From: an uncultured Acidobacteriota bacterium
GTDB lineage: Bacteria; Acidobacteriota; Vicinamibacteria; Vicinamibacterales; CAVPJW01
Direction: 5' to 3'
DNA: 64,000 nt
NCBI GenBank assembly: GCA_963826865.1
Contig: CAWGYQ010000007.1
Location: 103,725-167,724 of the forward strand
Under the pieces are notes generated by a model. The model made no database searches and was not told where the DNA came from. It saw only the letters and a list, made by a program, of their open reading frames with translations. The position numbers and the translations under genes were made by a program. Shown piece after piece: positions 14,234-57,714 of the stretch; position 1 is the first letter of the stretch, and every line of letters starts with the position of its first letter.

Positions 14234-14250
14234 GCCTGGACGCCAACACG

Positions 14251-15435
14251 ATGCCCTCCCCGGTCTTCATCCTCGGCGGCGCCCGGACACCGATGGCCAC
14301 TTACGTCGGGGCTCTCAAGGATGTCTCGGCCATCGAGCTCGGCGCCGTGGCTGGGCGCGCGGCGCTCGAACGATCGGGCACGAAGCCCGAGTGGATCGAC
14401 CACGTCGTCTTCGGTAACGTCCTGCAGACGAGCGCGGATGCCGTGTACGGCGCACGCCACGTTGCGCTCAAAGCTGGCGTGCCTGTCGAAGTGCCTGCCC
14501 TGACCGTCAACCGTTTGTGTGGATCGGGAATCCAGGCCGCGGTGAGCGGCGCGCAACTGATCCAGCTCGGTGAAGCGGGTCTCGTGCTGACTGGTGGCAT
14601 GGAGAGCATGAGCCAGGCGCCGCACGTCATTCGCGGCCTTCGCACCGGGCTTCGATTGGGCCAGGGCAAGCTCGAGGACTCCCTCTGGGAGGCGCTGCTC
14701 GACACCCACTCGGGCTGCACGATGGCGATGACGGCCGAGAACTGTGCCCGTCAGTACGGGATTTCACGTGCCGAGCAGGACGAGTATGCCTTGCGCAGCC
14801 AGCAGCTGGCTGCCAAGGCCTGGCAGGAAGGCCGCCTCGCCGAAGAGGTGGTGGCGGTCGAGATCAGGGTGCGCAAGGGTCTCGAGCTGTTCACGCAGGA
14901 CGACCATCTTCGCCCGGACACGACCATCGAAAAGCTGGCGGCGCTTCCACCCGCCTTCAGCAAGGACGGGTTCGTCACCGCCGGCAATGCCAGCGGCGTC
15001 GTCGATGGCGGTGCGGCCCTCGTGCTGGCGTCGCCCGATGCGGTTGAGAGACACGCGCTGAAGCCACTGGGGCGGCTGGTCGGTTGGGCGGCGGTGGGTG
15101 TCGAGCCGCGTCTCATGGGCATGGGGCCCGCGCCTGCCACGCGTCAGCTGCTCGACAAGCTGGGTCTGACGCTCGACGACATGGATCTCATCGAGGTCAA
15201 CGAAGCGTTTGCGGGTCAGTACCTGGCGGTCGAGAAAGAGCTCGGGCTCGATCGCGCGAAGGTCAACGTGAACGGCGGCGCCATCGCACTCGGGCACCCG
15301 CTGGGGATGACGGGCACGCGACTCCTGCTGACGCTCCTGCTCGAGCTCCGGCGTCGCGGCCAGCGCCGTGGCCTCGCCACAGCGTGCATCGGCGGCGGCC
15401 AGGGGATCGCTGCCGTGGTCGAAGCCGAAAACTAG
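14251..15435 (+). CDS. acetyl-CoA C-acetyltransferase (thiolase), second copy
   Basis: ATG 14251 gives MPSPVFILGGARTPMATY. Also NRLCGSGIQA, NEAFAGQ, NVNGGAIALGHPLGMTGTR. About 395 aa. As sequenced it lies in the same open frame as the preceding dehydrogenase fragment. Confidence 0.88.
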   Translation: MPSPVFILGGARTPMATYVGALKDVSAIELGAVAGRAALERSGTKPEWIDHVVFGNVLQTSADAVYGARHVALKAGVPVEVPALTVNRLCGSGIQAAVSGAQLIQLGEAGLVLTGGMESMSQAPHVIRGLRTGLRLGQGKLEDSLWEALLDTHSGCTMAMTAENCARQYGISRAEQDEYALRSQQLAAKAWQEGRLAEEVVAVEIRVRKGLELFTQDDHLRPDTTIEKLAALPPAFSKDGFVTAGNASGVVDGGAALVLASPDAVERHALKPLGRLVGWAAVGVEPRLMGMGPAPATRQLLDKLGLTLDDMDLIEVNEAFAGQYLAVEKELGLDRAKVNVNGGAIALGHPLGMTGTRLLLTLLLELRRRGQRRGLATACIGGGQGIAAVVEAEN

Positions 15436-16280
15436 TACTTGTAGAACCCCTCGCCGCTCTTGCGGCCCAGTCGACCGGCCAGGACCATCCGCTTCAAGAG
15501 CGGCGGCGGTGCGAAGGCGGGATCCTTGAACTCCTCGAACATGATGCCCGCAATGTAAAGCGTCGTGTCCAGCCCTACGAAATCGAGCAGGGTGAACGGG
15601 CCCATCGGATAGCCGCAGCCGAGCTTCATCCCCTTGTCGATGTCCTCGATCGTGCCGAGGCCGCTCTCGTACACGCGGATCGCTTCCAGAATGTACGGCA
15701 CCAGCAGCCGATTGACGATGAAGCCCGGTCGATCGGGCGCCGTAATCGGGTCCTTGCCGAGCGCCCGGGCAAACGAGAATACCGTCTGATATGTCTCGTC
15801 GCTCGTCGTCAACGCGCGAACCACTTCGGTGAGTTTCATGAGCGGCACGGGGTTGAAGAAGTGGAGCCCCGCAAAGCGATCTGGTCGCTTCGTTCGCGCG
15901 GCCAGCTCGGTGATGCAGAGCGACGACGTGTTCGACGCGAAGATGGTGTGCGCGCCGACAAGAGGCTCGAGGGCGGCGTAGGCCTGTGATTTCTCGTCGA
16001 GGTTCTCGACGATCGCCTCGATGACGATGTCACAGTCGGCGAGGTCGCGAAATTCCGTCACCCCGGACAAGTTGCCCAGCGTCGTGTCGCGACTCTCTGA
16101 CGTGAGTTTTCCTTTGGCGACGCCGTCGGCGAGGAATTTCTGGATGCGTCCGAGGCCGCGCTCGAGGGCGGAGCGGTCGACCTCACGAACGATCGTGCGG
16201 TAGCCGGCCTGCGCGGACACCTGCGCGATGCCCGATCCCATCAATCCACATCCCAGCACACCCACCGTTCGAATTTGCAT
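15432..16280 (-). CDS. hbd: 3-hydroxybutyryl-CoA dehydrogenase
   Basis: 282 aa. Rossmann motif VGVLGCGLMGSGIAQ, then HFFNPVPLMKLTEV and C-terminal GRLGRKSGEGFYKY. Its stop overlaps the convergent thiolase stop (CTAG). Confidence 0.88.
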   Translation of the reverse strand: MQIRTVGVLGCGLMGSGIAQVSAQAGYRTIVREVDRSALERGLGRIQKFLADGVAKGKLTSESRDTTLGNLSGVTEFRDLADCDIVIEAIVENLDEKSQAYAALEPLVGAHTIFASNTSSLCITELAARTKRPDRFAGLHFFNPVPLMKLTEVVRALTTSDETYQTVFSFARALGKDPITAPDRPGFIVNRLLVPYILEAIRVYESGLGTIEDIDKGMKLGCGYPMGPFTLLDFVGLDTTLYIAGIMFEEFKDPAFAPPPLLKRMVLAGRLGRKSGEGFYKY

Positions 16281-16292
16281 GATGTCCGACCC

Positions 16293-17055
16293 TCAGGGCT
16301 CGAGCGTTCCGAGAAGGGCTCGAGCGTCGCCCTTGAATTGATGATCTTCGGGCGTCCAGTCAGGATCGAGCGGGGCGTCGAGTACCTTCTGCAACTCGGC
16401 GCGCGCCTCGGGTTCCCGGCCGTCGGCGATGAGCGTTTCCGCCAGAAAGAAGTGAGAGGCCGTACTGTTCGGGATCGTACATGAGCGACTTGCGCAGATG
16501 CTCTTCGGACTTCTTCCGGCTTCCGCCGAACAGGCCGGGCACCTTGTAGTACCAGCGGCCGAGCGCACGGTCCGCCGATCCCTTCTGGAACGACGCGTCG
16601 AGCTTCAGCACCGTTTCGAGCTCGCGCTTGATGGCCCCGCGGTACTTGAGTCCGGCCCGCATACCGAACGATTCCGCCATCGCACCCATGTTCGCCGCGG
16701 TCCAGAAGTGTCCCTCGGGACGGTTCGGCTCCACGGCCGACGCCTGATTGCCGGCCTCAATCCCGCGCTCGTACATCCTGCGTTGCCCGTCTTCGGGACC
16801 GTGGCCACCGAGCCAGTAGGCCGCGCGGGCCAGCTTCCACGCAGATTCGAAATCGCGTGGGTTTGCCCGCAGTCGCGCGTCCCAGATGGTGAACGCTCGT
16901 TCGGCGCTGCCGGGATCGGCGCGCCTGGCGTAGAGCGCATCCGGGTCGTCCGTGGACGCCTGCACGGGCGCGGCCGAAGATGGCGTCTGCTCGGACGGGA
17001 GCGCGGCGACGCGCCCCGGCGAGGCCAGGATGGTGAAGTACAATACCGTCGCCAT
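16293..17055 (-). pseudogene. secreted TPR-like protein (TatT-like), frame broken
   Basis: ORF 16360..17178 carries ...GSADRALGRWYYKVPGLFGGSRKKSEEHLRKSLMYDP. The sequence continues sensibly only in the frame of ORF 16293..16568 (...ASHFFLAETLIADGREPEARAELQKVLDAPLDPDW...). The switch is within 16459-16474. Family assignment is tentative. Confidence 0.55.
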
Positions 17056-17653
17056 GGAAGCGCTCATCAGACAGCTCATCCTCGAGCTTGGCGAAGATCC
17101 GGATCGGGAGGGACTCGTCAAGACGCCGCTCCGTGTCGAGAAGTCGCTTCGATTTCTTACGAGCGGGTACACCACCAACGTCGATCAGGTCCTGAACGGT
17201 GCGCTCTTCGCCGTCGATTATAGCGAGATGGTCATCGTTCGCGACATCGACTTCTTCAGCTTGTGCGAGCATCATCTGCTCCCGTTCTTCGGAAAGTGCC
17301 ACGTGGCCTATATTCCGAGCGGCCGAGTGGTGGGCCTCAGCAAGATTCCACGCCTCGTGGAAATCTTCAGCCGGCGGCTTCAGATTCAGGAGCGTCTGAC
17401 GGCGCAGATCGCAGAGACGATCGACGACAAGATTCAGCCGCTGGGCGTCGCGGTCGTGATCGAGGCCACGCATCTGTGCATGTCGATGCGCGGTGTGGAG
17501 AAGCAGAACTCCTTCGCGGTGACCAGCGCCATGCTCGGTGCGTTCCGCGACAATGCGCGCACCCGGATGGAGTTTCTCGAGCTGGTCAAGCTGCGTGCGG
17601 CTCCGCGCACGGTTGACGCCAGCGCAGGGGCCACCTGCCTCGCCGACGTGTAG
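17030..17653 (+). CDS. folE: GTP cyclohydrolase I
   Basis: [65 protein letters not shown]. Start is ATG 17030 (MVKYN) or 17054 (MEALI). Confidence 0.9.
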
Positions 17654-17661
17654 GTCGCGCG

Positions 17662-18330
17662 GTGTCCGCAGCCCGAAATCTGACGCGTCGCACGATCGGA
17701 GCGTTGGCGGTGCTGGCGCTCGCGCTCTCAGTGGGCGCGGCCGGTCAGACCCGAAAGCCTCCGACCAAGCCGGCCGCGACGGGCTTGCAGCGTGCACCGG
17801 CCGACATCACCTGTCCGGCCGAGCTCGGCATCGGGGTCAAGACTCGACGGCGGTTCTGTGATGTCCTGACGGGACGAGACCTCTCCGATGGCATCCTCGT
17901 CCGGCTGCCATCCCGGCGCGGCACGGCTACCCTCAGCTTCAATCTGCACAACCGGCACACCTATTCCGAAGAGCTCGTGAGGACCAATCGGGCCTACACG
18001 CGCTACACCGCGACCGTGGGCGTGCTGTCCCCCGACAATACGCTCCTCGCGCGCGGGGTGGTTGAAACCGAGTTCCGCACGGAGTCCGACTTGCTCGATC
18101 GCATCGAGGGCGGCGCCGGGCCTGGCGGGATCAAGGCGGTCGCGCCCAGCGGCCGCGAGCGTGTGAGCGTCACGATCCCGGCCGACGCCCCCAGCGTGAG
18201 CATCCTCGGCGAGAAGTTGACGGTGGAGCGGCTCGACGGCACCTCGACGTACTCGGCCCCGGGACGGCCGATGGCCGTGATCAGCGACGTGCAGATCGAG
18301 TACCGGCCCGCTCCAGCGCGCCGACGGTGA
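17662..18330 (+). CDS. secreted hypothetical protein
   Basis: 222 aa. Signal-like RRTIGALAVLALALSVGAAGQ. GC3-rich coding look. No family recognised. Confidence 0.55.
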   Translation: MSAARNLTRRTIGALAVLALALSVGAAGQTRKPPTKPAATGLQRAPADITCPAELGIGVKTRRRFCDVLTGRDLSDGILVRLPSRRGTATLSFNLHNRHTYSEELVRTNRAYTRYTATVGVLSPDNTLLARGVVETEFRTESDLLDRIEGGAGPGGIKAVAPSGRERVSVTIPADAPSVSILGEKLTVERLDGTSTYSAPGRPMAVISDVQIEYRPAPARRR

Positions 18331-18366
18331 GGCGAGCGAGAGCGGCGCGTACATGAAATACGACGG

Positions 18367-18385
18367 ATCGAATGCCGCATTCGAT
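18367..18385. repeat. palindrome ATCGAATGC-C-GCATTCGAT (copy 1)
   Basis: Perfect 9+1+9 palindrome 37 nt after the stop at 18330. The core CGAATGCNGCATTCGAT recurs at 20652-20668. Confidence 0.7.
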
Positions 18386-18419
18386 GGAGCGAGTACCGGT
18401 TGGTCCCGTCGAGTCACGA

Positions 18420-19200
18420 GAGGCCCGGTTTTATTGATGATTCAGGCTCGTTCACGTTCGGCGGCGTGCCTTCCTGCGCAGGTGTGGCGCAATCCGTGAA
18501 ACCTAATCCGTCGCACACCTGATGTCTTAGATCAGCCGATCGAACTCCTGCTGCCCGATGTGGTTCGCTTGGAGCGGCTCGCCGAGCACGTCCCGGCTTC
18601 GCGTCAGCTCGCTGTGCTGCTTGGCGAACGATCAGCCCGTGATCGTGGTAGTGCTGCCGGTTCTTCATCTTCAGCGCGGCCTGTGCTGGCCTTGTGTGTC
18701 TTCAGGAGTTCGATCGTCTCCGCGGAGATTTCGATGGCCCGCGGCGTCTTGTTCTTCACCGGCCCCAAGGCGCTGACCCAGGCTTCACAGGTTGCCGCTG
18801 TGCGGTGAGACGCGCCGCCGGCATGTCCAGGTCGACCACTTCAGGCCGCACAGCTCGGCCTTCCGCATCCCGGTCTCGATGGCCAGCGTGTAGAACGCTG
18901 CCGGCTGCGGCCCGGCGGCTCTTGCGTCTCGAGGAACTTACGCGCTTCGTGCGCCTCCACACGTTCGCGAGCACGTCCGGATGACCTTGCGGGGCGTGCG
19001 GCTTGCCGGTCACGAGCTTCGCGACGTTTCGCTGTAGGAGTCCACCACGCACCGCCGCTTCAAGCCCGCCGGTGGACGATCTCGAGAAGTCGCCCGAGCC
19101 GATGTTCGCCTGGCATTGGTCTCGATCATGCGAACGACGAGCCTGCCGTGATGCAGTAGCCGGTATGACGCATTGGGCACCGAACGTTTCAGGTGATGGC
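18420..19200 (-). pseudogene. tyrosine recombinase / phage-type integrase remnant (multiple frameshifts, 3' truncated)
   Basis: Minus-strand fragments in three frames: LAIETGMRKAELCGLKWS (about 18810-18880), PVKNKTPRAIEISAETIELLKTHKA, LGEPLQANHIGQQEFDRLI, and VRRIRFHGLRHTCA (about 18478-18520, the HxLRHT box). No single long ORF, and the region that would carry the catalytic Tyr is missing. Confidence 0.7.
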
Positions 19201-19216
19201 GCACAATGTCGAGGGG

Positions 19217-19250
19217 AGAAAAAAATGGCGGGGCCATCGGGCCCCGCCAT
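19217..19250 (-). terminator. Rho-independent terminator after the PEP-CTERM gene
   Basis: Perfect 11-bp stem ATGGCGGGGCC/GGCCCCGCCAT (19225-19235 / 19240-19250) with loop ATCG. On the minus strand it is followed by TTTTTTT. Confidence 0.8.
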
Positions 19251-19304
19251 GTTCGAGACGATGTGACCGAGACGCGCGATGGTAACGCGCGCGCCGTCGG
19301 CAAA

Positions 19305-20005
19305 CTACGAGCGGTTCTTCAAACGCTTCCGCGCCTTCGAAGCCATCAGGAGCAGACCGCTGCCCAGCAGCGTGAGGCTAGCCGGCTCGGGCACGGTTGT
19401 CAGCTGCGGCGTGGGCAGGCCCGGCGTGTTGGTCCCAAACAGGGCAAAGTGGGAGAAGCTGCCGCCGGTCATCGACGCGACACCCGAGAGTCCGCCCGCC
19501 TGGAGGCTCAGCAGGAAGACGCCCCACTTGGGATCGGAGCCGTCCTTGATGCCCAGCGCGTATGCGAGAAAGTCGCCAGCCGCCGCGTCGTTGATCGCGA
19601 AGTTCGTGGACGTATTCGTCGAGTTCGAGAAGGTCAAGCCGTTGACTGCCGACCCCTGGTCCGTTGCTCCAGGTATCTGGTGGACCCGATGAAGCTCCAC
19701 GTCAGATTGAAGCGCTCTTCGTTCGGAAGCGATCAGCCTCTGTATCAAAGGAACTGATGAGTTGCCGAGGTCGTTGACGCCGTTTCCGTCCAGGAAGTCG
19801 TTGTTGTTAATGGCAAGGTTTCCATCGCCCCAAACGCAGTCGATCGGGCGGGTCGTCCCGGTGGTATTAACGTGTGTAGTTGTTGGACTGATCGCCCGTC
19901 AACGGATTCGGGGCAACTGAGCGCATCGGCCTCAGCGCGCGTCGAAACCATCGTGGCGAGCAGGAATACACCGGTTACGACGCCAAGAGATCTGGCAACA
20001 AACAT
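19305..20005 (-). pseudogene. PEP-CTERM sorting-domain protein, frame broken
   Basis: Signal peptide MFVARSLGVVTGVFLLATMVSTRAEA in one frame (ORF 19745..20005). The body NTTGTTRPIDCVWGDGNLAINNNDFLDGNGVNDLGN...FSNSTNTSTNFAINDAAAGDF... and the C-terminal VPEPASLTLLGSGLLLMASKARKRLKNRS (PEP-CTERM anchor) are in another frame. At least two one-base skips are needed (about 19925 and 19872). Confidence 0.7.
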
Positions 20006-20088
20006 ATGAAGCGCCCTTCTTCCTCAAGCGGACGGTGAACGAAACCAAATTCATCGGCGGTTTATGCAAATTTGCGACCACCAGCCTG

Positions 20089-20580
20089 TCATGGTTTAAT
20101 GACCATTTGTTTGTATAACTTACAAAGATGAGCCAGTGCTGAAAAGTCATCTTGGAGAGCGACTAAACTCATCCATATCATCCATGTGGACAACTTCTGC
20201 CTCTTCCCGCCGGCCGATCGGCGTGTGAGGTAACCAGCGATTCCAGCAGGTGGATGCGCGCCAGTTCCCTGAGCGTCAGGTCGACGACCGCCTCGGCCTC
20301 GGGGACGCTGTTCAGGCCAATTGCCGGCCATCGCTTGGGACTCGTGGCCCCGTCACACTGCCGCCCAGCGCGCCGCGGTCGGGTTGACCGTACACCTGCA
20401 CACGCGCCCGATCGTAGACCGCCACTTCCGCGCCCAGCTGCTCCGTGTGCGTGGTGGAGACTCGTGGATACCTCAGATCGCTCCTTGTCGTGCGGCCGAA
20501 GCACCAAGAATACATCCTGAACGAAATCCCGCTAATCGATGATGTCGCGACCCCTTCGATGAGCCCGATTTCGACCCGTT
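20089..20580 (-). pseudogene. degraded gene of unknown family
   Basis: Protein-like minus-strand stretches are split over two or three frames (RDFVQDVFLVLRPHDKE / LRYPRVSTTHTEQLGAEVAVYDRARVQVYGQPDRGALGG / PAIGLNSVPEAEAVVDLTLRELARIHLLESLVT) and end in an AT-rich tail. No intact ORF. Confidence 0.3.
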
Positions 20581-20604
20581 AGCGTGTCTGTCCGCTTCAC
20601 GCCC

Positions 20605-20640
20605 GAAAAGAAAAAAGGCCCGGAAGTCCGGGCCTTTTGG
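20605..20640 (-). terminator. Rho-independent terminator after the radical SAM gene
   Basis: Stem GGCCCGG/CCGGGCC (20617-20623 / 20628-20634), loop AAGT. Flanked by an A-run on one side and a T-run on the other. On the minus strand it is followed by TTTTTTCTTTT. Confidence 0.8.
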
Positions 20641-20651
20641 TCGGCTGGCAC

Positions 20652-20668
20652 CGAATGCGGCATTCGAT
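20652..20668. repeat. palindrome CGAATGC-G-GCATTCGAT (copy 2)
   Basis: Same arms as 18367-18385 with a complementary central base. It lies between the radical SAM stop (20692) and its terminator. Confidence 0.7.
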
Positions 20669-20691
20669 CAGCCGCTGGACGGTGTCGATGA

Positions 20692-22806
<2,115 letters not shown>

Positions 22807-22929
22807 AAAGGCTTGGTTTCTCCTCTGGCGCGGAGACGGACCGGACACCATTCGTCCCGTCGGGACACCACTGCCTCCCGAGGCCGCCCCGGCCACCCGG
22901 CATAGTAGGACGAGACGGCGCCCCCGAGA

Positions 22930-22956
22930 TGGCGTTTCCAGCCGATTGGCGTTTCC
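22930..22956. repeat. direct repeat TGGCGTTTCC x2 in divergent intergenic region
   Basis: TGGCGTTTCC at 22930-22939 and 22947-22956 (17-nt period), between the radical SAM gene and the flavoprotein gene. Candidate regulator binding site. Confidence 0.35.
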
Positions 22957-23026
22957 GGCGGGTCAGTGGGCAGAAGGGCGGTCCCCCGGACGGCCGGGCG
23001 GTCGCGTCTATGGCAATATCCCTCCC

Positions 23027-24036
23027 ATGAACATTCGTGATCTGGTCATCGTGGGAGGGGGGCCAGCCGGTCTGGCGGCGGCGATTGCGGCGAAGGGCGC
23101 CGGGCTCGACTACGTCGTGCTCGAAAAGGGTGTGCTGGTCAACTCGATCTACCGGTTTCCGCCGAACATGGTGTTCTTCACGACACCGGAATTGCTCGAG
23201 ATTGGCGGACTTCCGCTCGTGTCGCCCTTCGAGAAGCCGACACGGCTCGAAGCGCTCCGCTACTACCGCCGCGTCGTCGAGACTTACGCGATCGCGATCG
23301 AATACCAGCAAGAGGTACTTGCCGTTCGCCGCCAGCCACTCGGCGCCGACGACGGGTTCGTGCTCGATACCAGAGACGGGCGGGGCATGGCTGGCACCAT
23401 TCGTGCGCCACTCGGTAATTCTGGCCATTGGCTATTACGATCATCCGAATCTGCTGAGTATTCCCGGCGAGCAGCAGCCACACGTTTCGCACTATTACAC
23501 CGAGGCGCATGCGTACATCGGCCGCCGCGTCGTCGTGGTCGGTGGCGGCAATTCAGCGGCGGAAGCTGCTCTCGATCTCTATCGAGGCGGTGCAGTCGTC
23601 ACGCTCGTGCACTATCGGGACAGCTTCAAGCCGACCATCAAGTATTGGGTGAAACCGGATATCGAGAACCGCGTGAAGGAAGGCTCGATCGTCGGGCGGT
23701 TCAACACCCGCCTCCTCGAGATCCGGCGCGACGTCGGTCGTCATCGAAACGGGCCAGCGCGTCGACGAGCTGCCGGCGGACGCCGTGTTTCTGCTGACGG
23801 GCTACCATCCCGACTTCGATCTGTTCAGCCGGGCGGGTGTGGAGGTGGACAGCGTGACGGGCGTCGCCCGCTACGATCCTGAGACGCTCGAGACCAACGT
23901 GCCGGGGCTCTTCATCGCAGGCGGCGCGATCTCGGGGAAGGACACGGCGCCCATCTTCATCGAGAACGGGCGCTTCCATGGCGATCAGATCGTCAAGGTG
24001 CTCGTCGATCGGCAGCGCGCGATTCGGGCTCAATGA
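23027..24036 (+). pseudogene. YpdA-like FAD-dependent pyridine nucleotide-disulfide oxidoreductase, frame broken twice
   Basis: MNIRDLVIVGGGPAGLAAAIAA... in the frame of ORF 22523... Then FVRHSVILAIGYYDHPNLLSIPGE...VVVVGGGNSAAEAALDL in the frame of ORF 23037... Then VVIETGQRVDELPADAVFLLTGYHPD...GLFIAGGAISG in the frame of ORF 23785..24036. Switches are near 23399 and 23731. Confidence 0.8.
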
Positions 24037-24663
24037 GTCGCGGCGCGGCCGTACGGTGTCCGCGCCGTGATCAGTTTCATCTCGACGAGTTCGATGAGCG
24101 AGCGACAGCGCGCAAGCGCCCCAGCCTGCTCGAGCAGCGCGAGCTTCTCGAGCGGCTCGAGATCGAGGGTACTGCGCAAGGGCATTGATCAGCTCTTCGT
24201 CGGTCACGGCGTCCGAGAGCCTGGGCTCCGGGGCGAGGTGTTCGCCTGCCATGCGGATCAGGCGGTCGAGCTTCCGGCGCTCGCGTTCGAGAGCGGCCGC
24301 ATCGTGGCCGCCCACCTCGTCGGAGAGCACGTCGACGTGAGCCAACCGATAGGGCCGGGTGTGCTCCTCACCCACGACCCGAAACCTCTGAAGGCCTCGC
24401 AGGATGATGTTGTAGCGGTCCTCGGGCAGCCGCTCCGCGTGCGTGATGAGGCCTGCGCACCCGATGGGAAACACCGGCGGCCGTCCGGCGTAGTCATCCA
24501 TCCCTTCGGGTTTCAGCAGCACCATGCCAATCACCCGGTCGCCGCTCAGCGCATCACGCACCATCGCACGATATCGCGGCTCGAAAATGTGCAACGGAAG
24601 GAAGACACCCGGAAAGAGCACGACGTTGGGCAACGGAAAGATGGGAATGGGGGAAGACAGCAT
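24030..24663 (-). pseudogene. LON N-terminal (substrate-binding) domain protein, frame broken once
   Basis: MLSSPIPIFPLPNVVLFPGVFLPLHIFEPRYRAMV... up to INALAQY. It continues LDLEPLEKLALLEQAGALARCRSLIELVEMKLITARTPYGRAATH only after skipping one base in a G3 run (24167-24169). Stop at 24030-24032. Confidence 0.8.
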
Positions 24664-24668
24664 CGGAA

Positions 24669-25943
24669 TCAGTGCACCGTTCTGGTCTTTTTCGTCATGT
24701 AGTCCATCAGCACGTACTGGCCCAGCGTGTACCGGGTCGTGAAGTACGCTTTGCCGCGGCAGATCTCGGCGACTCGACGGACGAAGCTGACCAGATCGTG
24801 ATCGCGCGCGAGCATGAAGGTGTTGATCATGATCCCGCTCTGCCGGCACGCCCCGACCTCGGCGATCGTTTCCGCGACGATGAAGGGATCGAGGCCGAAG
24901 GCGTTCTTGTAGATGCGCCCGTCGGGCTGCGTCAGTGCGGACGGCTTTCCGTCGGTGATCATGATGATCTGTCGCATGTCCTTCCGCTGGCGTTCGAGGA
25001 TGCGGCGGGCGAGGCGCAGCCCTTCGCGGGTGTTCGTGTAGTAGGGCCCGACGCGCACCCGCCCCAGCTGCTGCAGCGGGACCTCCTCGGCAGAGTCGTG
25101 GAACAGCACGAGCTTGAGCACGTCGCCGGGGTACTGCAAGCGGATCAGATTCGACAGCGCGAGGGCCACTCGCTTCGCCGGGGTGAACCGATCCTCGCCG
25201 TACAGGATCATGCTGTGGCTGCAATCGAGCATGAGGACGGTCGCGCAGGAGCTCTGATACTCGCCCTGAGCCACCATGAGATCTTCGTAGCGCACGTCGA
25301 TGCCGCCCTCGGGGGTGGCTCGAGCTGGCCGCAGCGCGGCGCACGGCGTTCAGAATCGTGCTGCTGGCGTCCAGATTGAGCGTATCGCCGAACGCATACG
25401 GCTTCGGCGCCGCGGTGGCCTCAATGCCGGTGGACGGTTCGCGCGTATCGTGACGGCCGAAGCTGCTGCGGCCGAGCCGATCCCAGCAGATCTCTCAGGG
25501 CCCGGTAGCCCAGAAAATCGAGACTCTTGTCGGTCACCTCGAACTTCACCGGCGGACTCGGCTCCCCGGTGTCGGCGCCCGTGCCCTGCCGGTGCCGTCG
25601 TTCGGCGTCCAGGTCGGGTGCGGTCGTGATGAATCCCTGTTCCTCGAGCCGACGGATGATCTCGTCGATCAGCTCGTCAAGGGTCGACCGCGACGATGAT
25701 TGATCCCCGTCGGCCGGGTCGCCCATCAGCTGATTGAGCATCTCCTCGGAGAGCAGCCCGCCGGAGAACAGGGCTTCGAGGATGGCCTCGCGCAGCGCAT
25801 CCATCGTCCGATCGTCTTCGCCGTCGCCGTACGGATTCTGGAAGCCGCTCGAGAGGAGCAGATCGGACAGACGGCGAGATGAGCTCGTCGAGATCGAGCG
25901 TCTCGAGATCCTCGCCGGCAAACCGGGTGTAGCGGTAACGCAT
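24669..25943 (-). pseudogene. von Willebrand factor A (VWA) domain protein, frame broken three times
   Basis: MRYRYTRFAGEDLETLDLDELI, then RLSDLLLSSGFQNPYGDGEDD...FLGYRALRDLLGS, then [45 protein letters not shown], then [13 protein letters not shown]...[10 protein letters not shown]...[11 protein letters not shown]. Switches are near 25875, near 25475, and in the G5 run 25321-25325. Confidence 0.8.
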
Positions 25944-25959
25944 CGGCGCGAACGCCAGC

Positions 25960-27494
25960 TCAGTTGTAGTACCTTCTTCCGGCCCGGGAGCGGCAGGCCG
26001 TCGTCCAGCGACACCGGCTCGGTCCGCGGCTCGCGGCGGCGCGCCTGTTCGGCGGCCTGATAGCCACGCTCGTCGCTGCGGCCGATTTTCTTCAGCGAGT
26101 AGAGTCCCTCGAGCACGAAATCGACGGCGGACGCCAGCTTCGGCGCCGACGGGTTCGGTCCGAGGCCGGCCTGGCGTGGCCAGCTCGACCAGGCCCTGCA
26201 CAGCACCCGCCTTTTCGAGCACGTCGCTCGCCGACGTCACGTCGTCCGAAATCAACGAGCCGCCAAGCTCGAACCACTCGACCACAGGGCGCGTGTCGAG
26301 GTGTCCGAAGCGCTCCGTGAACACGTTGCCGACCGCTGCCCGAATCAGCTCGCGGGCGAGCGCGTCGGCTCCCCGCAGCTCGCCCTCGTACTCGAGCTCG
26401 AACTTGCCGGTGATCGACGGCAGCGCCGCGTACACATCGGTGACACGGGGAACAATCGGCGTCTCATTCCCGAGCAGCGCCCGTCGTTCCGCGTTCGACA
26501 CGACGTTTTCGAGGCACGTGATCGGCAGCCGCTGGCTCACACCCGACCGTTTGTCGATCCGTCGATCGGCGCGCGCCTGGAAGGCGATCTCTTCCACGAT
26601 GTCCTGCACGAAGTCCGGTACGTCGATCGGGCAGTCGACGTCGATGATCCAGGCTTCCTGCGCCGTGATGGCGAGCGCGCTGCTCGCGTGTCGCCGGATA
26701 GTGCGTGCGGATCTCCGACCCGATCCGATCCTTGAGGGGCGTGATGATCTTGCCGCGGGCGGTATAGTCCTCGGGATTGGCCGTGAAGACGAGCAGCAGA
26801 TCGAGCGGCAGCCGGACCGGGTAGCCCTTAATCTGGACGTCGCCTTCCTGCAGGATGTTGAACAGGCCCACCTGAATCTTGCCGGCCAGATCCGGCAGCT
26901 CGTTGATGGCGAAGATGCCGCGGTTGGCCCGAGGCAGCAGCCCGTAGTGCATCGTGAGCTCGTCCGAGAGCTGAAAGCCACCACGTGCGGCCTTGATCGG
27001 ATCGATGTCGCCCACCATGTCGGCGATCGTCACGTCGGGCGTCGCCAGCTTCTCGACGTAGCGTGAGGTCGCGGGGCAGCCAGCCGATGGGCGTCCTGTC
27101 CCCCTCGTCCGCGATGCGCGTCCGGCAGGCGCCGCAGATCGGCGCCAGCGGGTCATCGTTGATTTCGCAGCCGGCGACGACGGGCACGAGCTCGTCGAGG
27201 AGCTCGGCGAGCCCGCGCATGATGCGGCTCTTCGCCTGGCCCCGCAGACCGAGCAGGATGAAGTTGTGATGCGAGAGAATGGCGTTCTGACATCTGCGGC
27301 ACGACGGTCTCGTCGTAGCCGATGATGCCGGGGAAGACGGCCGCACCCGAACGGAGTCGCAGGATGAGGTTGTGTCGAATCTCGTCCTTGACCGACCGGT
27401 GGCGCCGGATGGGGCTCGTGGGGTCGTCCAGCGCGTGCCGCAGGTCGCCGAGCGTCGTGATCGTGGCGTCGTGAACGCGCCCGGTGGTGTGCAT
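25960..27494 (-). pseudogene. AAA+ ATPase (ChlI/MoxR-like, often annotated sigma54-interaction-domain protein), frame broken five times
   Basis: [18 protein letters not shown]...[12 protein letters not shown], then [23 protein letters not shown] (Walker A-like), then [26 protein letters not shown]...[11 protein letters not shown]...[13 protein letters not shown]...IRTHYP, then AITAQEAWI...KRSGVSQRL..., then AGLGPNPSAPKLASAVDFVLEGL... Switches are near 27290, 27064, 26678, 26176 and 25972. The proposed stop TGA at 25960-25962 lies 16 nt before the VWA ATG. Confidence 0.75.
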
Positions 27495-27584
27495 TCTGCG
27501 ATTCTATCACGCAGGTTTGAGCGCTTCGGTTCGCTGAGCCCATCGCCGTCCGGTGGCGATGCTTGTGGCACACTACGCGCTTCG

Positions 27585-28391
27585 ATGCCCCATCCTGCGG
27601 TCTCATCCAATCGGCCGCTCGTCTTCGCGCACCGCGGCGGGGCAGCGCTTGCTCCCGAAAACACGATCGCGGCCTTCGATCGAGCGCTCGCCTGCGGGGC
27701 CGACGGTCTGGAACTCGACGTTCGGCTATCGCGTGACGGGATCGTGGTCGTTCTGCACGATGCCCGGCTCGACAGAACCACGGATGCCACCGGTCCTGTT
27801 GCGACGTGGACGGCCAGTGAGCTTGGGCGCGTGGATGCGGGGGCTCGCTTCGGGTTGGCCATCGGCGCACCGCATCGCGGCAGGGGCATTGGCGTGCCGA
27901 CCCTGGCGGAGGTACTGGCCCGCTACCCGGCGGCGCGTTTGATTGTCGAGCTCAAGGAGAACACGGATCGGTTGGCACGCGCCGTCGTGAGCGACGTGAT
28001 ACAGGCTGGCGCGGACGATCGCGTGTGTCTGGGGTCGTTCGGCCAGAGAGCGCTCCAAGCCATCCGGCGCCTGGCCCCGACGCTCGCCACGGGCGCGAGC
28101 CGGACCGAAGTGCGGGTGGCGTACTACCGATCGCGTCTGGGCTGGCCGGTGTCCCGCCCGGCCTATCAGGCGTTCCAGGTTCCGGAACGATCGGGGCGGA
28201 CGCTCATCGTGACGCCGCGATTTCTGGCCGCCGCCCGGCGGGCCGATGTCGTCGTGCAGGTCTGGACGGTTGATGATCCCGCTGACATGCGGCGGCTTCT
28301 CGCGTCAGGTGTCGCCGCCATCATTACAGACCGGCCCGACGTCGCGGTGACGACCGTGCGGGGGGCGATCGAGGAGAATGCACGGTTATGA
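27585..28391 (+). CDS. glycerophosphodiester phosphodiesterase
   Basis: ATG 27585 within ORF 27372..28391. [36 protein letters not shown], and C-terminal VQVWTVDD...AIITDRPD. Confidence 0.85.
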
Positions 28392-29365
28392 CAGCCGTCA
28401 CCAGTCTGGCTGCGCCCGGCCTGCTCGATATCTACGCGGCTCGCCGCCGCATCTCACGTGTGCTCTCCCCGACGCCCTTGATGCGCTATCCGGTGCTCGA
28501 TGCGGAACTCGGGTGCGAGGTGGCCGTCAAGCACGAGAACCACAATCCAACGGGTGCATTCAAAGTGCGTGGCGGGCTCAATCTGATTGGGAGTCTCGGC
28601 ACCGAGGATCGCCGCCGAGGTGTCATCAGCGCCAGCACGGGCAATCACGGCCAGTCGCTGGCGTTTGCCAGTCAACGCGAGGGCGTGTCGTGCACGATTG
28701 TCGTGCCGCGCGGCAACAATCCCGAGAAGAACGCCAACATGCGCGCTCTCGGCGCGAGAGTCGTGGAGCACGGGCGGGACTTCGACGAGGCGCGCGAATA
28801 TGTCGAGAAAGTGAGCCTCGACGAAGGGCTTCGCTACGTCCACTCCGCCAACGAGCCGTTGCTCATCGCCGGCGTCGGCACCTATGCGCTCGAGGTCTTC
28901 GAAGCCATGCCCGACGTTGACGTGGTCTTCGTCCCGATCGGCGGCGGAAGCGGCGCGTGCGGGCTGGTGACGGTGCGGAGCGGCATCGGTGCCCGCGCGC
29001 GGGTGATCGGGGTGCAGGCCGAGCGCGCCGACGCGTTTGCGCGGTCGTGGCGCGGCACGGCGCGTGTGGTGGGAGAGCGTGCCGACACCTTCGCCGAGGG
29101 GATGGCCACCCGGGTCACGTTCGACCTGACGTTCGGCATCCTTCGTCAGGCGCTCGACGACATCGTGCTGTTGAGCGAGGATGAGATCGCGGAGGGTGTC
29201 AGGCTCGCGCTCCGCACCACGCACAATCTGGCCGAGGGCGCGGGCGCCGCACCACTCATGGCCGCTTGGAAAAGCAGAGACAGCCTGCGGGGCAAGAAAG
29301 TGGTGTGTATCATGAGCGGCGGCAATATCGACGCCGCCACGCTCGGTCGGGTACTCGGGAATTGA
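28388..29365 (+). CDS. threonine/serine dehydratase (PLP-dependent, short form without regulatory domain)
   Basis: 325 aa. NPTGAFKVRG (PLP lysine), SASTGNHGQSLAF, PIGGGSGACG. ATGA overlap with the upstream gene. Confidence 0.85.
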   Translation: MTAVTSLAAPGLLDIYAARRRISRVLSPTPLMRYPVLDAELGCEVAVKHENHNPTGAFKVRGGLNLIGSLGTEDRRRGVISASTGNHGQSLAFASQREGVSCTIVVPRGNNPEKNANMRALGARVVEHGRDFDEAREYVEKVSLDEGLRYVHSANEPLLIAGVGTYALEVFEAMPDVDVVFVPIGGGSGACGLVTVRSGIGARARVIGVQAERADAFARSWRGTARVVGERADTFAEGMATRVTFDLTFGILRQALDDIVLLSEDEIAEGVRLALRTTHNLAEGAGAAPLMAAWKSRDSLRGKKVVCIMSGGNIDAATLGRVLGN

Positions 29366-29582
29366 CGCGCGACGGTCGCCGAGCGACCGCCTGGCCTCGG
29401 CGGCTTCAGCCGGGCCGCCTCGCGGTCTACAATAGGGAGAACCGCTCGCTCAGCTGCTACGCTCTCCCGCCGATGACGCGCTACAGTTGTCACGCGGGTG
29501 CACCGAGAAGCCGGTCGGCATCGGTCTGGGACCCTGGGCGCGAAGACCGACGCGCTCCGTACGTGAAGGACGTTGGCAGGCC

Positions 29583-32261
<2,679 letters not shown>

Positions 32262-32306
32262 GCCACCGCGGCATCGCCGCGCGTCCGGTCGAGAGGGTCG
32301 CCACAC

Positions 32307-33728
32307 GTGTCCACAGAATTCAAGTTGCCCGAGCTTGGCGAGAACGTTCAGTCCGGAGATGTCCTGCGCATTCTGGTCAAGCCCGGCGACACCATCGCCC
32401 GCGATCAGCCGGTCGTCGAGCTCGAAACCGACAAAGCCACGATTGAAGTGCCATCGTCGGTCGCTGGCCGCGTGGTCGACCTCAAGGTGAAGACCGGGGA
32501 GAAGGTCAAGGTTGGCCAGGTGATTTTGACCGTTGACGAGGCAGGGGAGCCCCAGGCCGCGGCTGCCGCGACGCCATCTTCTTCGACACCAGAGAAGCCT
32601 TCATCACCACCGGCCGACGCCGCGGCGGCGACCAAGCCAGACCGAACCCGTGCCGTCGAACAGGCGGCCGAACCCTCGGGTGAGGACGACGACGAGGGCG
32701 ACGACGACGACGAACCATCATCCGTCCCCGAAGCGCCCGCCCCTCGTGCCCGGCGCGGCGAAGTCGTCGAGATGGCTCGCCCGCCGCGTCCGCAGGCCGA
32801 TTCCTCGTCCAGCGCGCCGTCTTCGGCGCGTCCCGCTGCACCCGCCGCGCCCTCGACGCGCCGGCTCGCGCGCGAGCTCGGCGTGGATATCGACGCCGTC
32901 GGAGGCAGCGGACCAGAGGGGCGCATTTCGGTCGACGATGTGAAGGCGCATGCCAAGAAGCTCCTGAGTCGCGGCGGGACCGACCGCGCGTCGGCGGGCG
33001 AGCCGCTCCCGGACTTCAGCAGATGGGGCGCGGTCGAGCGCAAGCCGCTTCGAGGGGTCCGTCGCAAGACGGCCCAGCACCTGGCTCACGCGTGGGCCAC
33101 CATTCCGCACGTCACCCAGTACAATCGCGCCGACATCACCACCCTCGACGCGACGCGGCAGAAGTACGCCAAGCAAGTGGAAGACGCCGGCGGCGCGCTG
33201 ACGCTCACGGCCATCGCCACCAAGGTGATTGCCGCCGCGCTGAAAGTATTTCCGCAGTTCAACGCTTCGATCGACATGGCCAACGAGGAGCTGATCGAGA
33301 AAAAGTACGTGCACGTCGGCGTCGCAGTCGACACCGAGCGCGGCCTCCTCGTCCCCGTCATCCGCGACGCCGACCAGAAGAACCTCGTGGCGATCTCCCG
33401 CGAGCTGACTGATCTGTCCGCCCGCGCGCGCGAGGGCAAGCTCACCCTCGAGGAGATGCAGGGCGGTTCCATCAGCATCTCGAATCTCGGGGGGATCGGC
33501 GGAACGGCGTTTTCGCCAATCGTCAACGCGCCCGAGGTGGCCATCCTGGGCATCGCCCGAGCCAGCATGCAGCCCGTCTTCATCGACGGGCAGTTCCAGC
33601 CCAGATTGCTGCTCCCCTTGTCGTTGTCCTACGACCATCGTGTCATCGACGGCGCCGATGCGGTCCGCTTCCTGCGGTGGGTGATCGAGGCCCTTGAACA
33701 GCCACTCGTGATCAGCCTCTTCGGATGA
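32307..33728 (+). CDS. aceF: dihydrolipoamide acetyltransferase (E2)
   Basis: Lipoyl domain ELETDKATIEVPS, Ala/Pro/acidic linker, E3-binding segment PSTRRLARELGVD, catalytic domain ending LSLSYDHRVIDGA. Confidence 0.92.
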   Translation: MSTEFKLPELGENVQSGDVLRILVKPGDTIARDQPVVELETDKATIEVPSSVAGRVVDLKVKTGEKVKVGQVILTVDEAGEPQAAAAATPSSSTPEKPSSPPADAAAATKPDRTRAVEQAAEPSGEDDDEGDDDDEPSSVPEAPAPRARRGEVVEMARPPRPQADSSSSAPSSARPAAPAAPSTRRLARELGVDIDAVGGSGPEGRISVDDVKAHAKKLLSRGGTDRASAGEPLPDFSRWGAVERKPLRGVRRKTAQHLAHAWATIPHVTQYNRADITTLDATRQKYAKQVEDAGGALTLTAIATKVIAAALKVFPQFNASIDMANEELIEKKYVHVGVAVDTERGLLVPVIRDADQKNLVAISRELTDLSARAREGKLTLEEMQGGSISISNLGGIGGTAFSPIVNAPEVAILGIARASMQPVFIDGQFQPRLLLPLSLSYDHRVIDGADAVRFLRWVIEALEQPLVISLFG

Positions 33729-33767
33729 CGCGGCGGACGATCACTCTGGCCTCGCGATCCGAATGAC

Positions 33768-35204
33768 ATGACCACTCGCCAAACACGGCTTGCTGTGCTC
33801 GGTGCCGGCCCCGGGGGCTACGCGGCCGCGTTCCTTGCCGCCGATCTGGGGTTTCAGGTCACGCTGATCGATCGCGAAGCCAATCCCGGAGGTGTCTGCC
33901 TGTATCGAGGGTGCATCCCATCGAAGGCGCTGCTTCACGTGGCGCGCGTCATCGACGAGGCGTCCCATGCCGAGCGCTGGGGCGTGCGGTTCGCAAAGCC
34001 CGACATTCAGGTCGAGCGCGTGCGCGGTTGGAAGGACGAGGTCGTGCAGAAGATGACCGGAGGGCTCGGGGTGCTCTCCCGGCAGCGGCGCGTTCGCTAC
34101 GTTCAGGGTGAGGCGTCGCTGGTCAATCCGAACACGTTTCGAGTCCAGCCGGCAGCCAAGAAAGGTGAGGGGCCGGAAGACGTCGCCTTCGACTACGCCG
34201 TCCTGGCCACGGGGTCGCGTCCCTCGTCGGTCCCGGCGCTGTCGATTGACAGCCCCCGCGTGCTCGACTCGACCTCCGCCCTCGATCTGGAGAACATCCC
34301 GCGGACGCTGCTCGTCGTTGGGGGAGGCTACATCGGCTTGGAGCTCGGGACGGTCTACGCCGCGCTTGGCAGCGCCGTTTCAGTCGTCGAGATGACGCCG
34401 GGCTTGCTTCCCGGCGCCGATCGCGATCTCGTGGCAGTGCTTTCGCGACGAATCGAGAAGATGTGTCATGCGGTCATGCTCAACACGCGAGTCACCAAGG
34501 TGGCCGACACCGGATCCAGTCTTCGAGTGAGCTTCGAGGGTCCCAGCCTCGACCGTCCCGAGCAGGAGTTCGAGAAAGTGCTCGTCGCGGTCGGACGACG
34601 GCCCAACTCGGCCATCCCGGGGCTGGAAGGCACGCGGGTGGAGCTCGACCCACGCGGCTTCATCAAGGTCGACTCGCAGCGGCGAACGGGCGAGCCGTCG
34701 CTCTTCGCGATTGGGGACGTTGCCGGCGAGCCGATGCTCGCCCACAAGGCATCGCACGAGGCCCGAGTCGCTGTGGAGACGATGGCCGGACACAAGGCGG
34801 CGTTCGACCCGCGGGCCATTCCCGCGGTGGTGTTCACCGATCCCGAGATCGCGTGGTGCGGAGTGACCGAGGCCCAGGCCGCCCTAGCGAAGCAGCCTGT
34901 CCAGATTGCCAAGTTCCCATGGGGAGCCTCGGGTCGTGCCACCACACTGGACCGCTCAGACGGCTTGACCAAGCTGGTCGTCGATCCGGCCACCGAGCGC
35001 GTGCTCGGCGTCGGCATTGTCGGGCCCGGCGCCGGCGAGCTGATTGCCGAAGGGGTGCTGGCCATCGAAATGGGTGCCGTGGTGCGGGATCTCGCGCTGA
35101 CGATCCACGCCCATCCAACGCTCTCGGAAACGCTCATGGAGGCGGCCGAGGTGTTTTTCGGCCAGGCCACGCACTACTACCGGCCAAAACGGGAACAGGC
35201 CTAA
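33768..35204 (+). CDS. lpd: dihydrolipoyl dehydrogenase (E3)
   Basis: GAGPGGYAAA, redox-active GGVCLYRGCIPSK, second Rossmann motif VVGGGYIGLELG, C-terminal HAHPTLSE. Confidence 0.92.
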   Translation: MTTRQTRLAVLGAGPGGYAAAFLAADLGFQVTLIDREANPGGVCLYRGCIPSKALLHVARVIDEASHAERWGVRFAKPDIQVERVRGWKDEVVQKMTGGLGVLSRQRRVRYVQGEASLVNPNTFRVQPAAKKGEGPEDVAFDYAVLATGSRPSSVPALSIDSPRVLDSTSALDLENIPRTLLVVGGGYIGLELGTVYAALGSAVSVVEMTPGLLPGADRDLVAVLSRRIEKMCHAVMLNTRVTKVADTGSSLRVSFEGPSLDRPEQEFEKVLVAVGRRPNSAIPGLEGTRVELDPRGFIKVDSQRRTGEPSLFAIGDVAGEPMLAHKASHEARVAVETMAGHKAAFDPRAIPAVVFTDPEIAWCGVTEAQAALAKQPVQIAKFPWGASGRATTLDRSDGLTKLVVDPATERVLGVGIVGPGAGELIAEGVLAIEMGAVVRDLALTIHAHPTLSETLMEAAEVFFGQATHYYRPKREQA

Positions 35205-35241
35205 TATTAGAATTTATTATCTAATCGTAAGAAATATAACT

Positions 35242-35271
35242 TTGACGCGTCACGACCGGCCGGACTATAAC
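35242..35271 (+). promoter_or_regulatory. putative sigma70-type promoter for the pheA-ilv cluster
   Basis: TTGACG (35242-35247), 18-nt spacer, TATAAC (35266-35271). It sits at the edge of a conspicuous AT-rich patch (35202-35262), about 225 nt upstream of pheA. Confidence 0.35.
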
Positions 35272-35495
35272 CAGCAGACCAGAGCGGATTGACTTCGTGC
35301 GCGCCCTCATTTTCCTCGCTCGTGGCGTCGTCGTCGTTATCGGCGGCCGGTTCCGGCCGCACGAGACGAGCGGATGATTTGCCGGTTGGACGCGTGAGGG
35401 ACGACAACGGGCCATCATCCGATAAAGGGTGTGGCCCTTTTGCTTTTTATGTGGGGACCCCGGTGGGTCGCGCGGGATGAGAGTGAGGCACGGCG

Positions 35496-56763: not shown

Positions 56764-56789
56764 CTGGCTGACCGCAAAGACAGGCCACA

Positions 56790-56797
56790 ATTATAAT
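56790..56797. promoter_or_regulatory. palindromic -10-like element ATTATAAT in divergent intergenic region
   Basis: Reads TATAAT on both strands, between the minus-strand porin operon (ATG 56763) and the plus-strand gene at 56852. No convincing -35 on either side. Confidence 0.3.
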
Positions 56798-56851
56798 GCG
56801 CCGTCTCTTTCCGTCCGGATCCGGGCCTCGTCCCTGGTCGTGATTTCTCCA

Positions 56852-57328: not shown

Positions 57329-57408
57329 CCCGACTGAACCGTGCGGATAGAGTGAACAGAGACAACAACTTGCACCGTTGCACCCGCAACGGAATGATGT
57401 GGGGGCGA

Positions 57409-57684: not shown

Positions 57685-57714
57685 AGCCGTCCAGGAGCTA
57701 GGGACCGTCACCTT

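Follow-up and report, generated by a model that had tools for sequence, protein, structure and literature searches.

The eleven frame changes that break four neighbouring genes of a soil acidobacterium in the 64,000-nt stretch of DNA analysed here (the window) are, with a probability of about 0.9, consensus errors of the assembly, that is, spurious single bases, of which most are G or C and most lie clear of homopolymers. The variant bases are missing from a same-species contig, unrelated genes and both strands are affected, and the pattern recurs in one class of assemblies. Our analysis suggests that the frame changes reflect neither gene decay nor recoding and hold no new biology. The four genes underneath are intact and under purifying selection.

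Extra bases and corrected products of the four genes

The initial annotation had read the four genes as full-length proteins provided that one nucleotide is skipped at each of 11 points, all in the same direction. This reading was reproduced by codon usage, by protein alignment and by comparison with the same-species contig L081. A codon-usage Viterbi segmentation of the entire window, which detects frame switches on one strand, placed them at 23399/400, 23722/3, 24168/9, 25318/9, 25493/4, 25869/70, 26174/5, 26676/7, 27061/2 and 27288/9. Frameshift-aware protein-to-DNA alignment to six single-ORF orthologues per gene yielded 2 + 1 + 3 + 5 = 11 events in ypdA, lonN, vwa and the ATPase gene, respectively. 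All 11 require that one nucleotide be skipped, including the one at 25972/3 near the ATPase stop.

The extra bases were placed exactly by alignment to the 96%-identical L081 (Table 1). One vwa event had been assigned to a run of five G at 25321–25325; the run really lies at 25311–25315 and is unchanged in L081, and the extra base is C25325. The alignment at 23407 is slightly ambiguous, since an extra C of L081's own sits 23 nt upstream. Left uncorrected, the base at 25973 makes the ATPase ORF read through into the VWA gene.

Table 1. The four genes and the extra bases located in the window. Letters are given for the + strand.
Feature	Position	Strand	Remarks
ypdA, YpdA-family flavoprotein disulfide reductase	23027..24036	+	335 aa after removal of two extra bases
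lonN, Lon N-terminal (substrate-binding) domain and nothing else	24030..24663	-	210 aa after removal of one extra base
vwa, VWA-domain protein	24669..25943	-	423 aa after removal of three extra bases
ChlI/BchI-like AAA+ ATPase	25960..27494	-	509 aa after removal of five extra bases
Extra G in ypdA	23407	+	Absent from L081; frame switch by Viterbi and protein alignment
Extra G in ypdA	23733	+	Absent from L081, flanks identical for 20 bases upstream and 15 downstream; frame switch by both methods
Extra base in lonN	24169	-	GG to GGG; protein alignment, absent from L081
Extra base in vwa	25325	-	C, outside the nearby G5 run; protein alignment, absent from L081
Extra base in vwa	25476	-	G; protein alignment, absent from L081
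Extra base in vwa	25875	-	C; absent from L081 amid 20 identical bases per side; protein alignment
Extra base in ATPase, three codons before the stop	25973	-	C to CC; protein alignment, absent from L081
Extra base in ATPase	26175	-	C; protein alignment, absent from L081
Extra base in ATPase	26679	-	G; protein alignment, absent from L081
Extra base in ATPase	27068	-	G to GG; protein alignment, absent from L081
Extra base in ATPase	27291	-	C; protein alignment, absent from L081
Extra T splitting the isocitrate/isopropylmalate dehydrogenase (Iso_dh) gene	13695	+	Absent from L081; Viterbi frame switch
Extra T near the Iso_dh gene end	14201	+	Absent from L081; stop lost, ORF continues into the thiolase gene
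Extra base in TPR/TAtT-like gene	16470	-	Absent from L081; single-ORF orthologues align in two frames

The corrected lengths (335, 210, 423 and 509 aa) are those anticipated, none of the four proteins has an internal stop, and the gene identifications were right by profile matches. Corrected YpdA is a full-length member of its family above the curated cut-off (TIGR04018 Bthiol_YpdA, 396.4 bits vs 339.9; profile positions 1–314 of 316) and matches Pyr_redox_3 at E = 1e-76. The LonN protein spans positions 2–198 of the 200 in PF02190 LON_substr_bdg (E = 5e-37), and its orthologues, of about 213 aa, are each one ORF. The VWA protein scores 33.8 bits with VWA_2 (cut-off 27); its 423-aa orthologue in L081 holds PF27098 Rv0959_3rd and VWA_2. 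Full-length homologues of the AAA+ ATPase, about 505 aa long, number in the thousands and are labelled 'magnesium chelatase subunit I' by JGI. The ATPase itself scores 43.1 bits with TIGR02030 BchI-ChlI against a cut-off of 466.95, the AAA+ core alone aligning, and matches PDB 8osf at E = 4e-11. On such scores its resemblance to ChlI is only distant, and it would fall outside the Mg-chelatase subunit I family. The ATPase, VWA and LonN genes form the minus-strand operon described earlier. The genes called on L081 have the same spacing, 16 and 5 nt, and together with ypdA the three genes are syntenic and conserved across Vicinamibacterales. An Rfam scan of 17.5–28 kb of the window gave no matches.

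A same-species contig and the clustering of events

L081 (ERZ25039469 contig_151135) was compared directly with 21 kb of the window, between 13.7 and 37.4 kb; judging by its coordinates, the full contig should cover the window from end to end. Its DNA is 96% identical, and it is therefore of the same species; the genome-contig scan yielded other species only (83–91% aa identity), and a JGI protein search gave no match above 82% identity. None of the 11 extra bases, nor any of the three outside the region, occurs in L081, and around most of the 11 the flanks are identical. Its VWA and LonN genes are intact, and so is the ATPase gene save for L081's own errors. The frame-breaking indels of L081 itself occur at sites that differ from those of the window (three in thiolase, and others at 16166, 16641, ypdA 23384, ATPase 27339 and PDH E2 33122), with a further compensated pair at 26248/26287 in the ATPase region; nine of these ten are insertions, the other a deletion. 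A 2.27-kb segment (18385–20654) is present in the window strain and missing from L081. The events of the window flank it, at 13695–16470 on one side and at 23407–27291 on the other.

The events are not restricted to the four genes, the same type being also found elsewhere. For instance, the Iso_dh gene around 13695 matches Pfam profile positions 2–179 in one frame and 174–347 in the next, and owing to the base at 14201 a single 620-aa ORF contains the Iso_dh C-terminus and the thiolase. Similarly, the two alignment frames of the TPR/TAtT-like gene meet at 16468–16472. Since these three extra-base frameshifts lie in unrelated genes of housekeeping type, the effect is not limited to the ATPase-VWA-LonN module. 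All 14 frame-breaking events confirmed in the window are +1 insertions, with no deletions, and they occur on both strands (ypdA on the plus, the operon on the minus, and Iso_dh and the TPR gene besides). Two further indel candidates in the window, at about 55583 and at 60311–60801, lie beyond the 21 kb compared with L081.

The clustering is well outside chance expectation. The probability that at least 11 of 14 events fall within one given 4.5-kb stretch is P = 6e-11, and in 200,000 simulations the maximum per 4.5-kb stretch was never above 8–9. The local rate, whose comparison with the rest of the contig had been suggested, is about 2.5 events per kb vs at most about 0.1 elsewhere. The region from 27.6 to 44.8 kb is clean as claimed: direct comparison with L081 gives zero frame breaks in 27.5–37.4 kb, and the codon model gives zero up to 44.8 kb. 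The radical-SAM gene (20.7–22.9 kb), which adjoins the strain-specific segment, is also clean.

Against L081, dN/dS is 0.128 (dS 0.110) for the four corrected genes and 0.093 (dS 0.115) for 11 flanking genes. The corrected genes are thus on par with intact neighbours, and selection is not relaxed. The mismatch density in 23–27.5 kb (1.4–5.2% per 500 nt) is no different from that in the flanking sequence, on which ground a generally unpolished patch was rejected. As for the context of the 11 sites, three of the extra bases lengthen an existing run, the longest run containing one being 3, and eight lie outside homopolymers; no motif common to the sites, slippery motifs included, was found. Methylation-motif errors were considered and rejected: at six of the 11 sites a GATC is present within about 25–40 nt, but in no case does it coincide with the extra base, and no common motif exists at the exact positions. 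A consensus artefact at SNP sites, in which both strain alleles are emitted, was likewise dismissed, most extra bases lying within stretches identical to L081.

Frame switches across assembly classes

In 80 orthologous loci from related species, frame switches were counted per gene in the same four genes. A switch was present in 25 of 86 genes in MFD 'contig_N' MAGs (Nanopore-only, Flye/Medaka), in 1 of 156 genes in short-read assemblies, that one at a run of N, and in 0 of 28 genes in other long-read chromosomes (Fisher P = 8e-12). Extra bases account for 54 of the 66 events in the MFD MAGs and missing bases for 12, and the uniform direction is therefore typical of that class. The frameshift rate varies widely from one of these MAGs to another. 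That the four genes are error-prone by nature across species was ruled out, since in the MFD MAGs they carry 0.35 switches per kb vs 0.27 per kb in flanking genes. The MFD-LR MAGs were produced from Nanopore R10.4.1 data by Flye in meta mode with one Medaka round; short-read polishing is not described in the assembly methods, and the authors mention Nanopore-associated errors at lower coverage (PMC12313526).

The errors in the window would arise from a long-read metagenome assembly, most likely a Nanopore-only one of the Flye plus Medaka type, the platform being judged from the relatives. Within a broader error-prone neighbourhood at 13.7–27.3 kb, which encloses the strain-specific segment missing from L081, the events are densest in the patch at 23.4–27.3 kb. 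Poor or strain-mixed local read support would probably account for this density.

The value of this result is mainly practical. An annotation that took the region at face value would record four pseudogenes, or about a dozen ORF fragments, and falsely imply that a conserved ATPase-VWA-LonN module had been lost. In this order, Nanopore-only MAGs contain insertion-biased single-base errors, often outside homopolymers, at a mean of about 0.3 per kb and locally much denser. Gene-content and pseudogene analyses of such MAGs therefore need frameshift-aware gene calling.

Alternative explanations and comparison with known systems

The initial annotation left a choice between a locally error-rich assembly and a recent, uniform inactivation of the ATPase-VWA-LonN module. 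The former is favoured by L081, the unrelated genes, dN/dS and the assembly class. It is not free of difficulty: a density of about 2.5 per kb is 7–10 times the Nanopore MAG mean (about 0.3 per kb) and is matched by the worst loci only, such as L008, substitutions are not elevated along with insertions as they would be in a simply unpolished patch, and most insertions do not sit in the textbook context of Nanopore error. Nevertheless, genuine and very recent pseudogenisation, with eleven real +1 insertions inactivating ypdA and the operon, is very unlikely, even though the dense breaks fall mostly within genes that are conserved together. L081 carries none of the extra bases, Iso_dh and the TPR gene, 7–10 kb away, are affected alike, and in other species such frameshifts are tied to one assembly class, being common in Nanopore-only MAGs and near-absent in short-read assemblies. 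It would take a long neutral period to fix eleven indels, but dN/dS and dS are as in intact neighbours, with neither in-frame stops nor eroded motifs. Bacterial indel spectra are biased towards deletions, whereas the 14 events are all one-base insertions, with no deletions or longer indels among them.

Alternatively, the insertions could have come from a real local burst of mutation, for example by error-prone gap-filling synthesis during recombination beside the 18385–20654 segment. The position of the confirmed events on both sides of that segment, together with a normal substitution density and an excess limited to insertions, would suit such a process. However, the radical-SAM gene directly beside the segment is clean, L081 has errors of its own in the same neighbourhood without possessing the segment, and the association with assembly class accounts for the pattern without a burst, which makes it extremely improbable; to our knowledge, no mutational process gives +1 insertions alone and outside runs. 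That the extra bases are real in the sense of a +1 burst around the 2.27-kb segment which knocked out ATPase-VWA-LonN-YpdA too recently for any other decay is highly improbable. Programmed recoding, by which +1 ribosomal frameshifting or transcriptional slippage past the extra bases would still allow the proteins to be made, agrees with the same +1 correction at all events and with the full-length corrected products, yet its chance is practically nil. The sites share no slippery motif, and their homopolymers never exceed 3 where transcriptional slippage takes about 7 or more. The first stop in the zero frame comes 18–184 codons downstream, with none found for one of the sites, and therefore no ribosome pause is expected at the sites; programmed +1 frameshifting is marked by a conserved shift-prone site paired with a stop codon or a slow codon, and no such pairing was seen. 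The sites are missing from L081 and from all orthologues, and we know of no bacterial precedent for eleven recoding sites in four genes. Recoding would require conservation in relatives, and from the sequences compared it may be taken as refuted for practical purposes.

Consensus error, the preferred reading, is best compared with the gene-splitting indels of Nanopore assemblies, which are revealed by ORF-length screens of the IDEEL type and have been discussed for R10.4 and for the MFD-LR MAG catalogue (PMC9262707, PMC12313526). The likeness lies in single-base indels within conserved ORFs, the link to assembly class, the variation in rate from MAG to MAG, and the absence from short-read assemblies of relatives. 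The literature emphasizes homopolymers, whereas 8 of the 11 extra bases here are outside any run; the window also differs in having insertions only, a local density roughly tenfold that of the class on average, and no elevation of substitutions. With frameshift-born bacterial pseudogenes the window shares multiple frame-disrupting indels in genes intact in relatives, but selection is not relaxed, the insertions are exclusively +1, a same-species contig lacks the events, and unrelated neighbour genes are affected alike.

The module itself would be a distant relative of Mg-chelatase ChlI/ChlD: its AAA+ core can be aligned with ChlI structures and a VWA partner is coupled across the 16-nt gap, yet the scores are far under the equivalog cut-offs (43 vs 467 bits). 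The VWA protein resembles the mycobacterial Rv0959-type protein, namesake of PF27098, in combining an Rv0959_3rd domain with a C-terminal VWA domain. What sets the present arrangement apart from a ChlI/ChlD or Rv0959-type pair is that the ATPase and VWA genes are followed by a protein with the Lon N-terminal domain only, adjoining a YpdA-family reductase.

Frame changes in four adjacent genes

A codon-usage model was trained on the long ORFs of the window and run as a seven-state Viterbi segmentation. It placed 10 same-strand frame changes at 23.4-27.3 kb, none of them at a gene boundary, and in each piece the coding signal ends tens to hundreds of nucleotides ahead of the stop codon of its own frame. 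A blastx of the window against stop-to-stop ORFs of related loci, a comparison proposed in the initial annotation, found the orthologues to be single ORFs, with the window's similarity jumping from frame to frame. Frameshift-aware protein-to-DNA alignment, using six intact orthologues per gene, resolved two events in ypdA, one in lonN, three in vwa and five in the ATPase gene, all of the kind that skips one nucleotide. The 11 same-direction changes noticed by that annotation are thereby confirmed. One ATPase event lies three codons ahead of the stop and is backed by the conserved C-terminus of the orthologues. Deletion of one base per site yields proteins of 335, 210, 423 and 509 aa, which are free of internal stops and of the family-typical lengths foreseen. 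Each extra base is a G or a C, and 8/11 extend no run. A vwa event had been assigned to a G5 run; this run lies at 25311-25315, and the extra base is C25325.

A same-species contig and selection on the corrected genes

A search with the corrected ATPase protein retrieved one protein at 95% identity, encoded on ENA ERZ25039469 contig_151135 (L081), a contig of the same species whose DNA is 96% identical to window 13681-18385 and 20654-37392. L081 lacks all 11 extra bases, mostly with 20 identical nucleotides on either flank, and therefore settles their exact positions. Its VWA and LonN genes are intact (423 and 210 aa). L081 carries at least 10 frame-breaking single-base indels of its own, at positions other than those of the window: three in the thiolase gene, one each in ypdA, the ATPase N-terminus and PDH E2, and two at about 16.2-16.6 kb in genes on the minus strand. 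The 3HCDH side is likewise affected. Inside the ATPase gene an insertion and a deletion compensate each other, with 13 codons scrambled; judged by the orthologues, L081 is out of frame there and the window in frame. Housekeeping-type genes are broken in both assemblies, at differing places. A 12-nt in-frame length difference from L081 (GGTGAGGACGAC), located where the 2-oxoacid dehydrogenase E2 gene encodes an acidic stretch, looks like a real length polymorphism and not an error. In the 230-nt intergenic region from the radical-SAM gene to ypdA there are five single-base length differences, the window having one extra base and four missing relative to L081; these may be real or may be errors in either assembly.

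Between the window and L081, the four corrected genes have a pooled dN/dS of 0.128 (dS 0.110), and 11 flanking genes 0.093 (dS 0.115). The substitution density of the patch per 500 nt equals that of the flanks, and neither measure gives a sign of decay in the four corrected genes.

Events elsewhere and the origin of the extra bases

The window holds 14 confirmed frame-breaking events in total, every one an extra base. Outside the four genes, two split an isocitrate/isopropylmalate dehydrogenase gene, where the second deletes the stop and fuses the ORF to the thiolase gene, and one lies in a TPR/TAtT-like gene, which in orthologues is a single ORF of 270-290 aa. Frameshifting is specific neither to the ATPase-VWA-LonN module nor to the window's assembly. 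Elsewhere the codon model gave only two further candidates, at which the coding signal quits 202 and 128 nt short of the stops of the enclosing ORFs; they may be more frameshifts or overlapping genes.

Features in the window and positions of frame-breaking events
Feature	Position	Strand	Remark
Isocitrate/isopropylmalate dehydrogenase	13161-14260		extra T at 13695 and 14201
Thiolase	14263-15435
TPR/TAtT-like gene	16302-17166	minus	extra base at 16470
GTP cyclohydrolase I	16934-17653	plus
Segment absent from L081	18385-20654		2.27 kb
147-aa ORF	19305-19748	minus
Radical-SAM protein	20692-22896	minus
Five single-base differences	22883-22994		versus L081
ypdA	23027-24036	plus
lonN	24030-24663	minus
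vwa	24669-25943	minus
ATPase gene	25960-27494	minus
GDPD phosphodiesterase		plus
12-nt difference	32679-32690		versus L081
469-aa ORF	55381-56790		no Pfam match
Candidate frame change	~55583	minus	202 nt before stop
Small genes	56696-58709		ferredoxin-domain, NuoB-like
Candidate frame change	60311-60801	plus	128 nt before stop

Frame switches were scored in the same four genes across 80 related loci. Microflora Danica (MFD) long-read MAGs (records MFD…bin… contig_N) have a switch in 25/86 genes, against 1/156 in short-read style assemblies, that one at a run of N (Fisher P = 8e-12); other long-read chromosome-level records have 0/28. In the MFD MAGs the four genes, at 0.35 switches per kb, are affected no more than flanking genes, at 0.27 per kb, and the rate differs greatly among MAGs, some having none and others about 2 per kb. 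The affected MFD genes contain 54 extra-base and 12 missing-base events in frameshift-aware alignment; at this ratio the chance of 11/11 in one direction is about 0.11, so the uniform direction needs no special explanation. For the MFD-LR catalogue, Nanopore R10.4.1 reads were assembled by Flye (meta mode) and polished in a single Medaka round; short-read polishing is absent from the described methods, and the authors report Nanopore-associated errors at lower coverage (PMC12313526).

The best explanation of the 11 frame changes is erroneous insertions in the consensus of a long-read metagenome assembly, at four genes that are intact and under selection. Of the two alternatives offered by the initial annotation, a locally error-rich assembly is upheld by the lack of all 11 bases in L081 and by the association with the MFD class. 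The other, a recent and uniform inactivation of the module, is not supported: fixing 11 neutral indels would need a neutral period that should have raised dN/dS; the ratio is not raised, and unrelated genes are broken as well. Programmed recoding was rejected: the sites share no motif, have no homopolymer longer than 3 and are conserved in no relative. Without a shift, translation would run on for 18-184 codons before reaching a stop, and at one site no such stop turned up. The window's sequencing platform we infer from its relatives and the error signature.

The clustering of events is highly non-random. Their density at 23.4-27.3 kb is about 2.5 per kb; the 13.7-16.5 kb stretch has three in all and 27.5-37.4 kb has none, in keeping with the clean stretch described earlier beyond 27.6 kb. 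A 2.27-kb segment that L081 lacks lies within the error-prone neighbourhood, and L081's own errors concentrate on the same side, which together suggest thin or strain-mixed reads; such read support around a strain-variable segment may account for the dense error patch. The segment has a low coding signal, and its Rfam search returned nothing. It holds a 147-aa ORF whose C-terminus resembles a PEP-CTERM sorting signal (VPEP, a hydrophobic stretch, basic residues).

Gene order and the corrected module

The window DNA (GC about 65%) comes from a member of Vicinamibacterales (Acidobacteriota), and the closest species-representative genomes by its VWA protein are Vicinamibacterales MAGs at 83-91% amino-acid identity. 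These relatives keep the gene order around the four genes: a radical-SAM protein, the YpdA-family flavoprotein, the Lon N-domain-only protein, the VWA protein, the ChlI-like AAA+ ATPase and a GDPD phosphodiesterase. The large radical-SAM protein, beside ypdA in relatives too, has an HMPTM-type N-terminal zinc ribbon (PF23545); its gene lies a few kb from that of GTP cyclohydrolase I, and the two may be a pterin-related pairing. Farther away, the run of small genes for 4Fe-4S ferredoxin-domain proteins and a NuoB-like (Oxidored_q6) subunit appears to consist of separate genes, not fragments.

After correction the minus-strand trio is as tightly coupled as first described, its genes lying 16 and 5 nt apart, and the YpdA-family reductase gene is convergent with it, an arrangement found repeatedly across the order. 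The corrected YpdA protein scores 396 bits against TIGR04018 (cut-off 339.9), the LonN protein is a stand-alone Lon N-domain that matches PF02190 end to end, and the VWA protein, with an Rv0959_3rd domain, lies above the VWA_2 threshold. The corrected ATPase bears only a distant likeness to ChlI and scores far under the cut-offs of the chelatase models; it belongs to a very large family for which the usual label is 'magnesium chelatase subunit I'.
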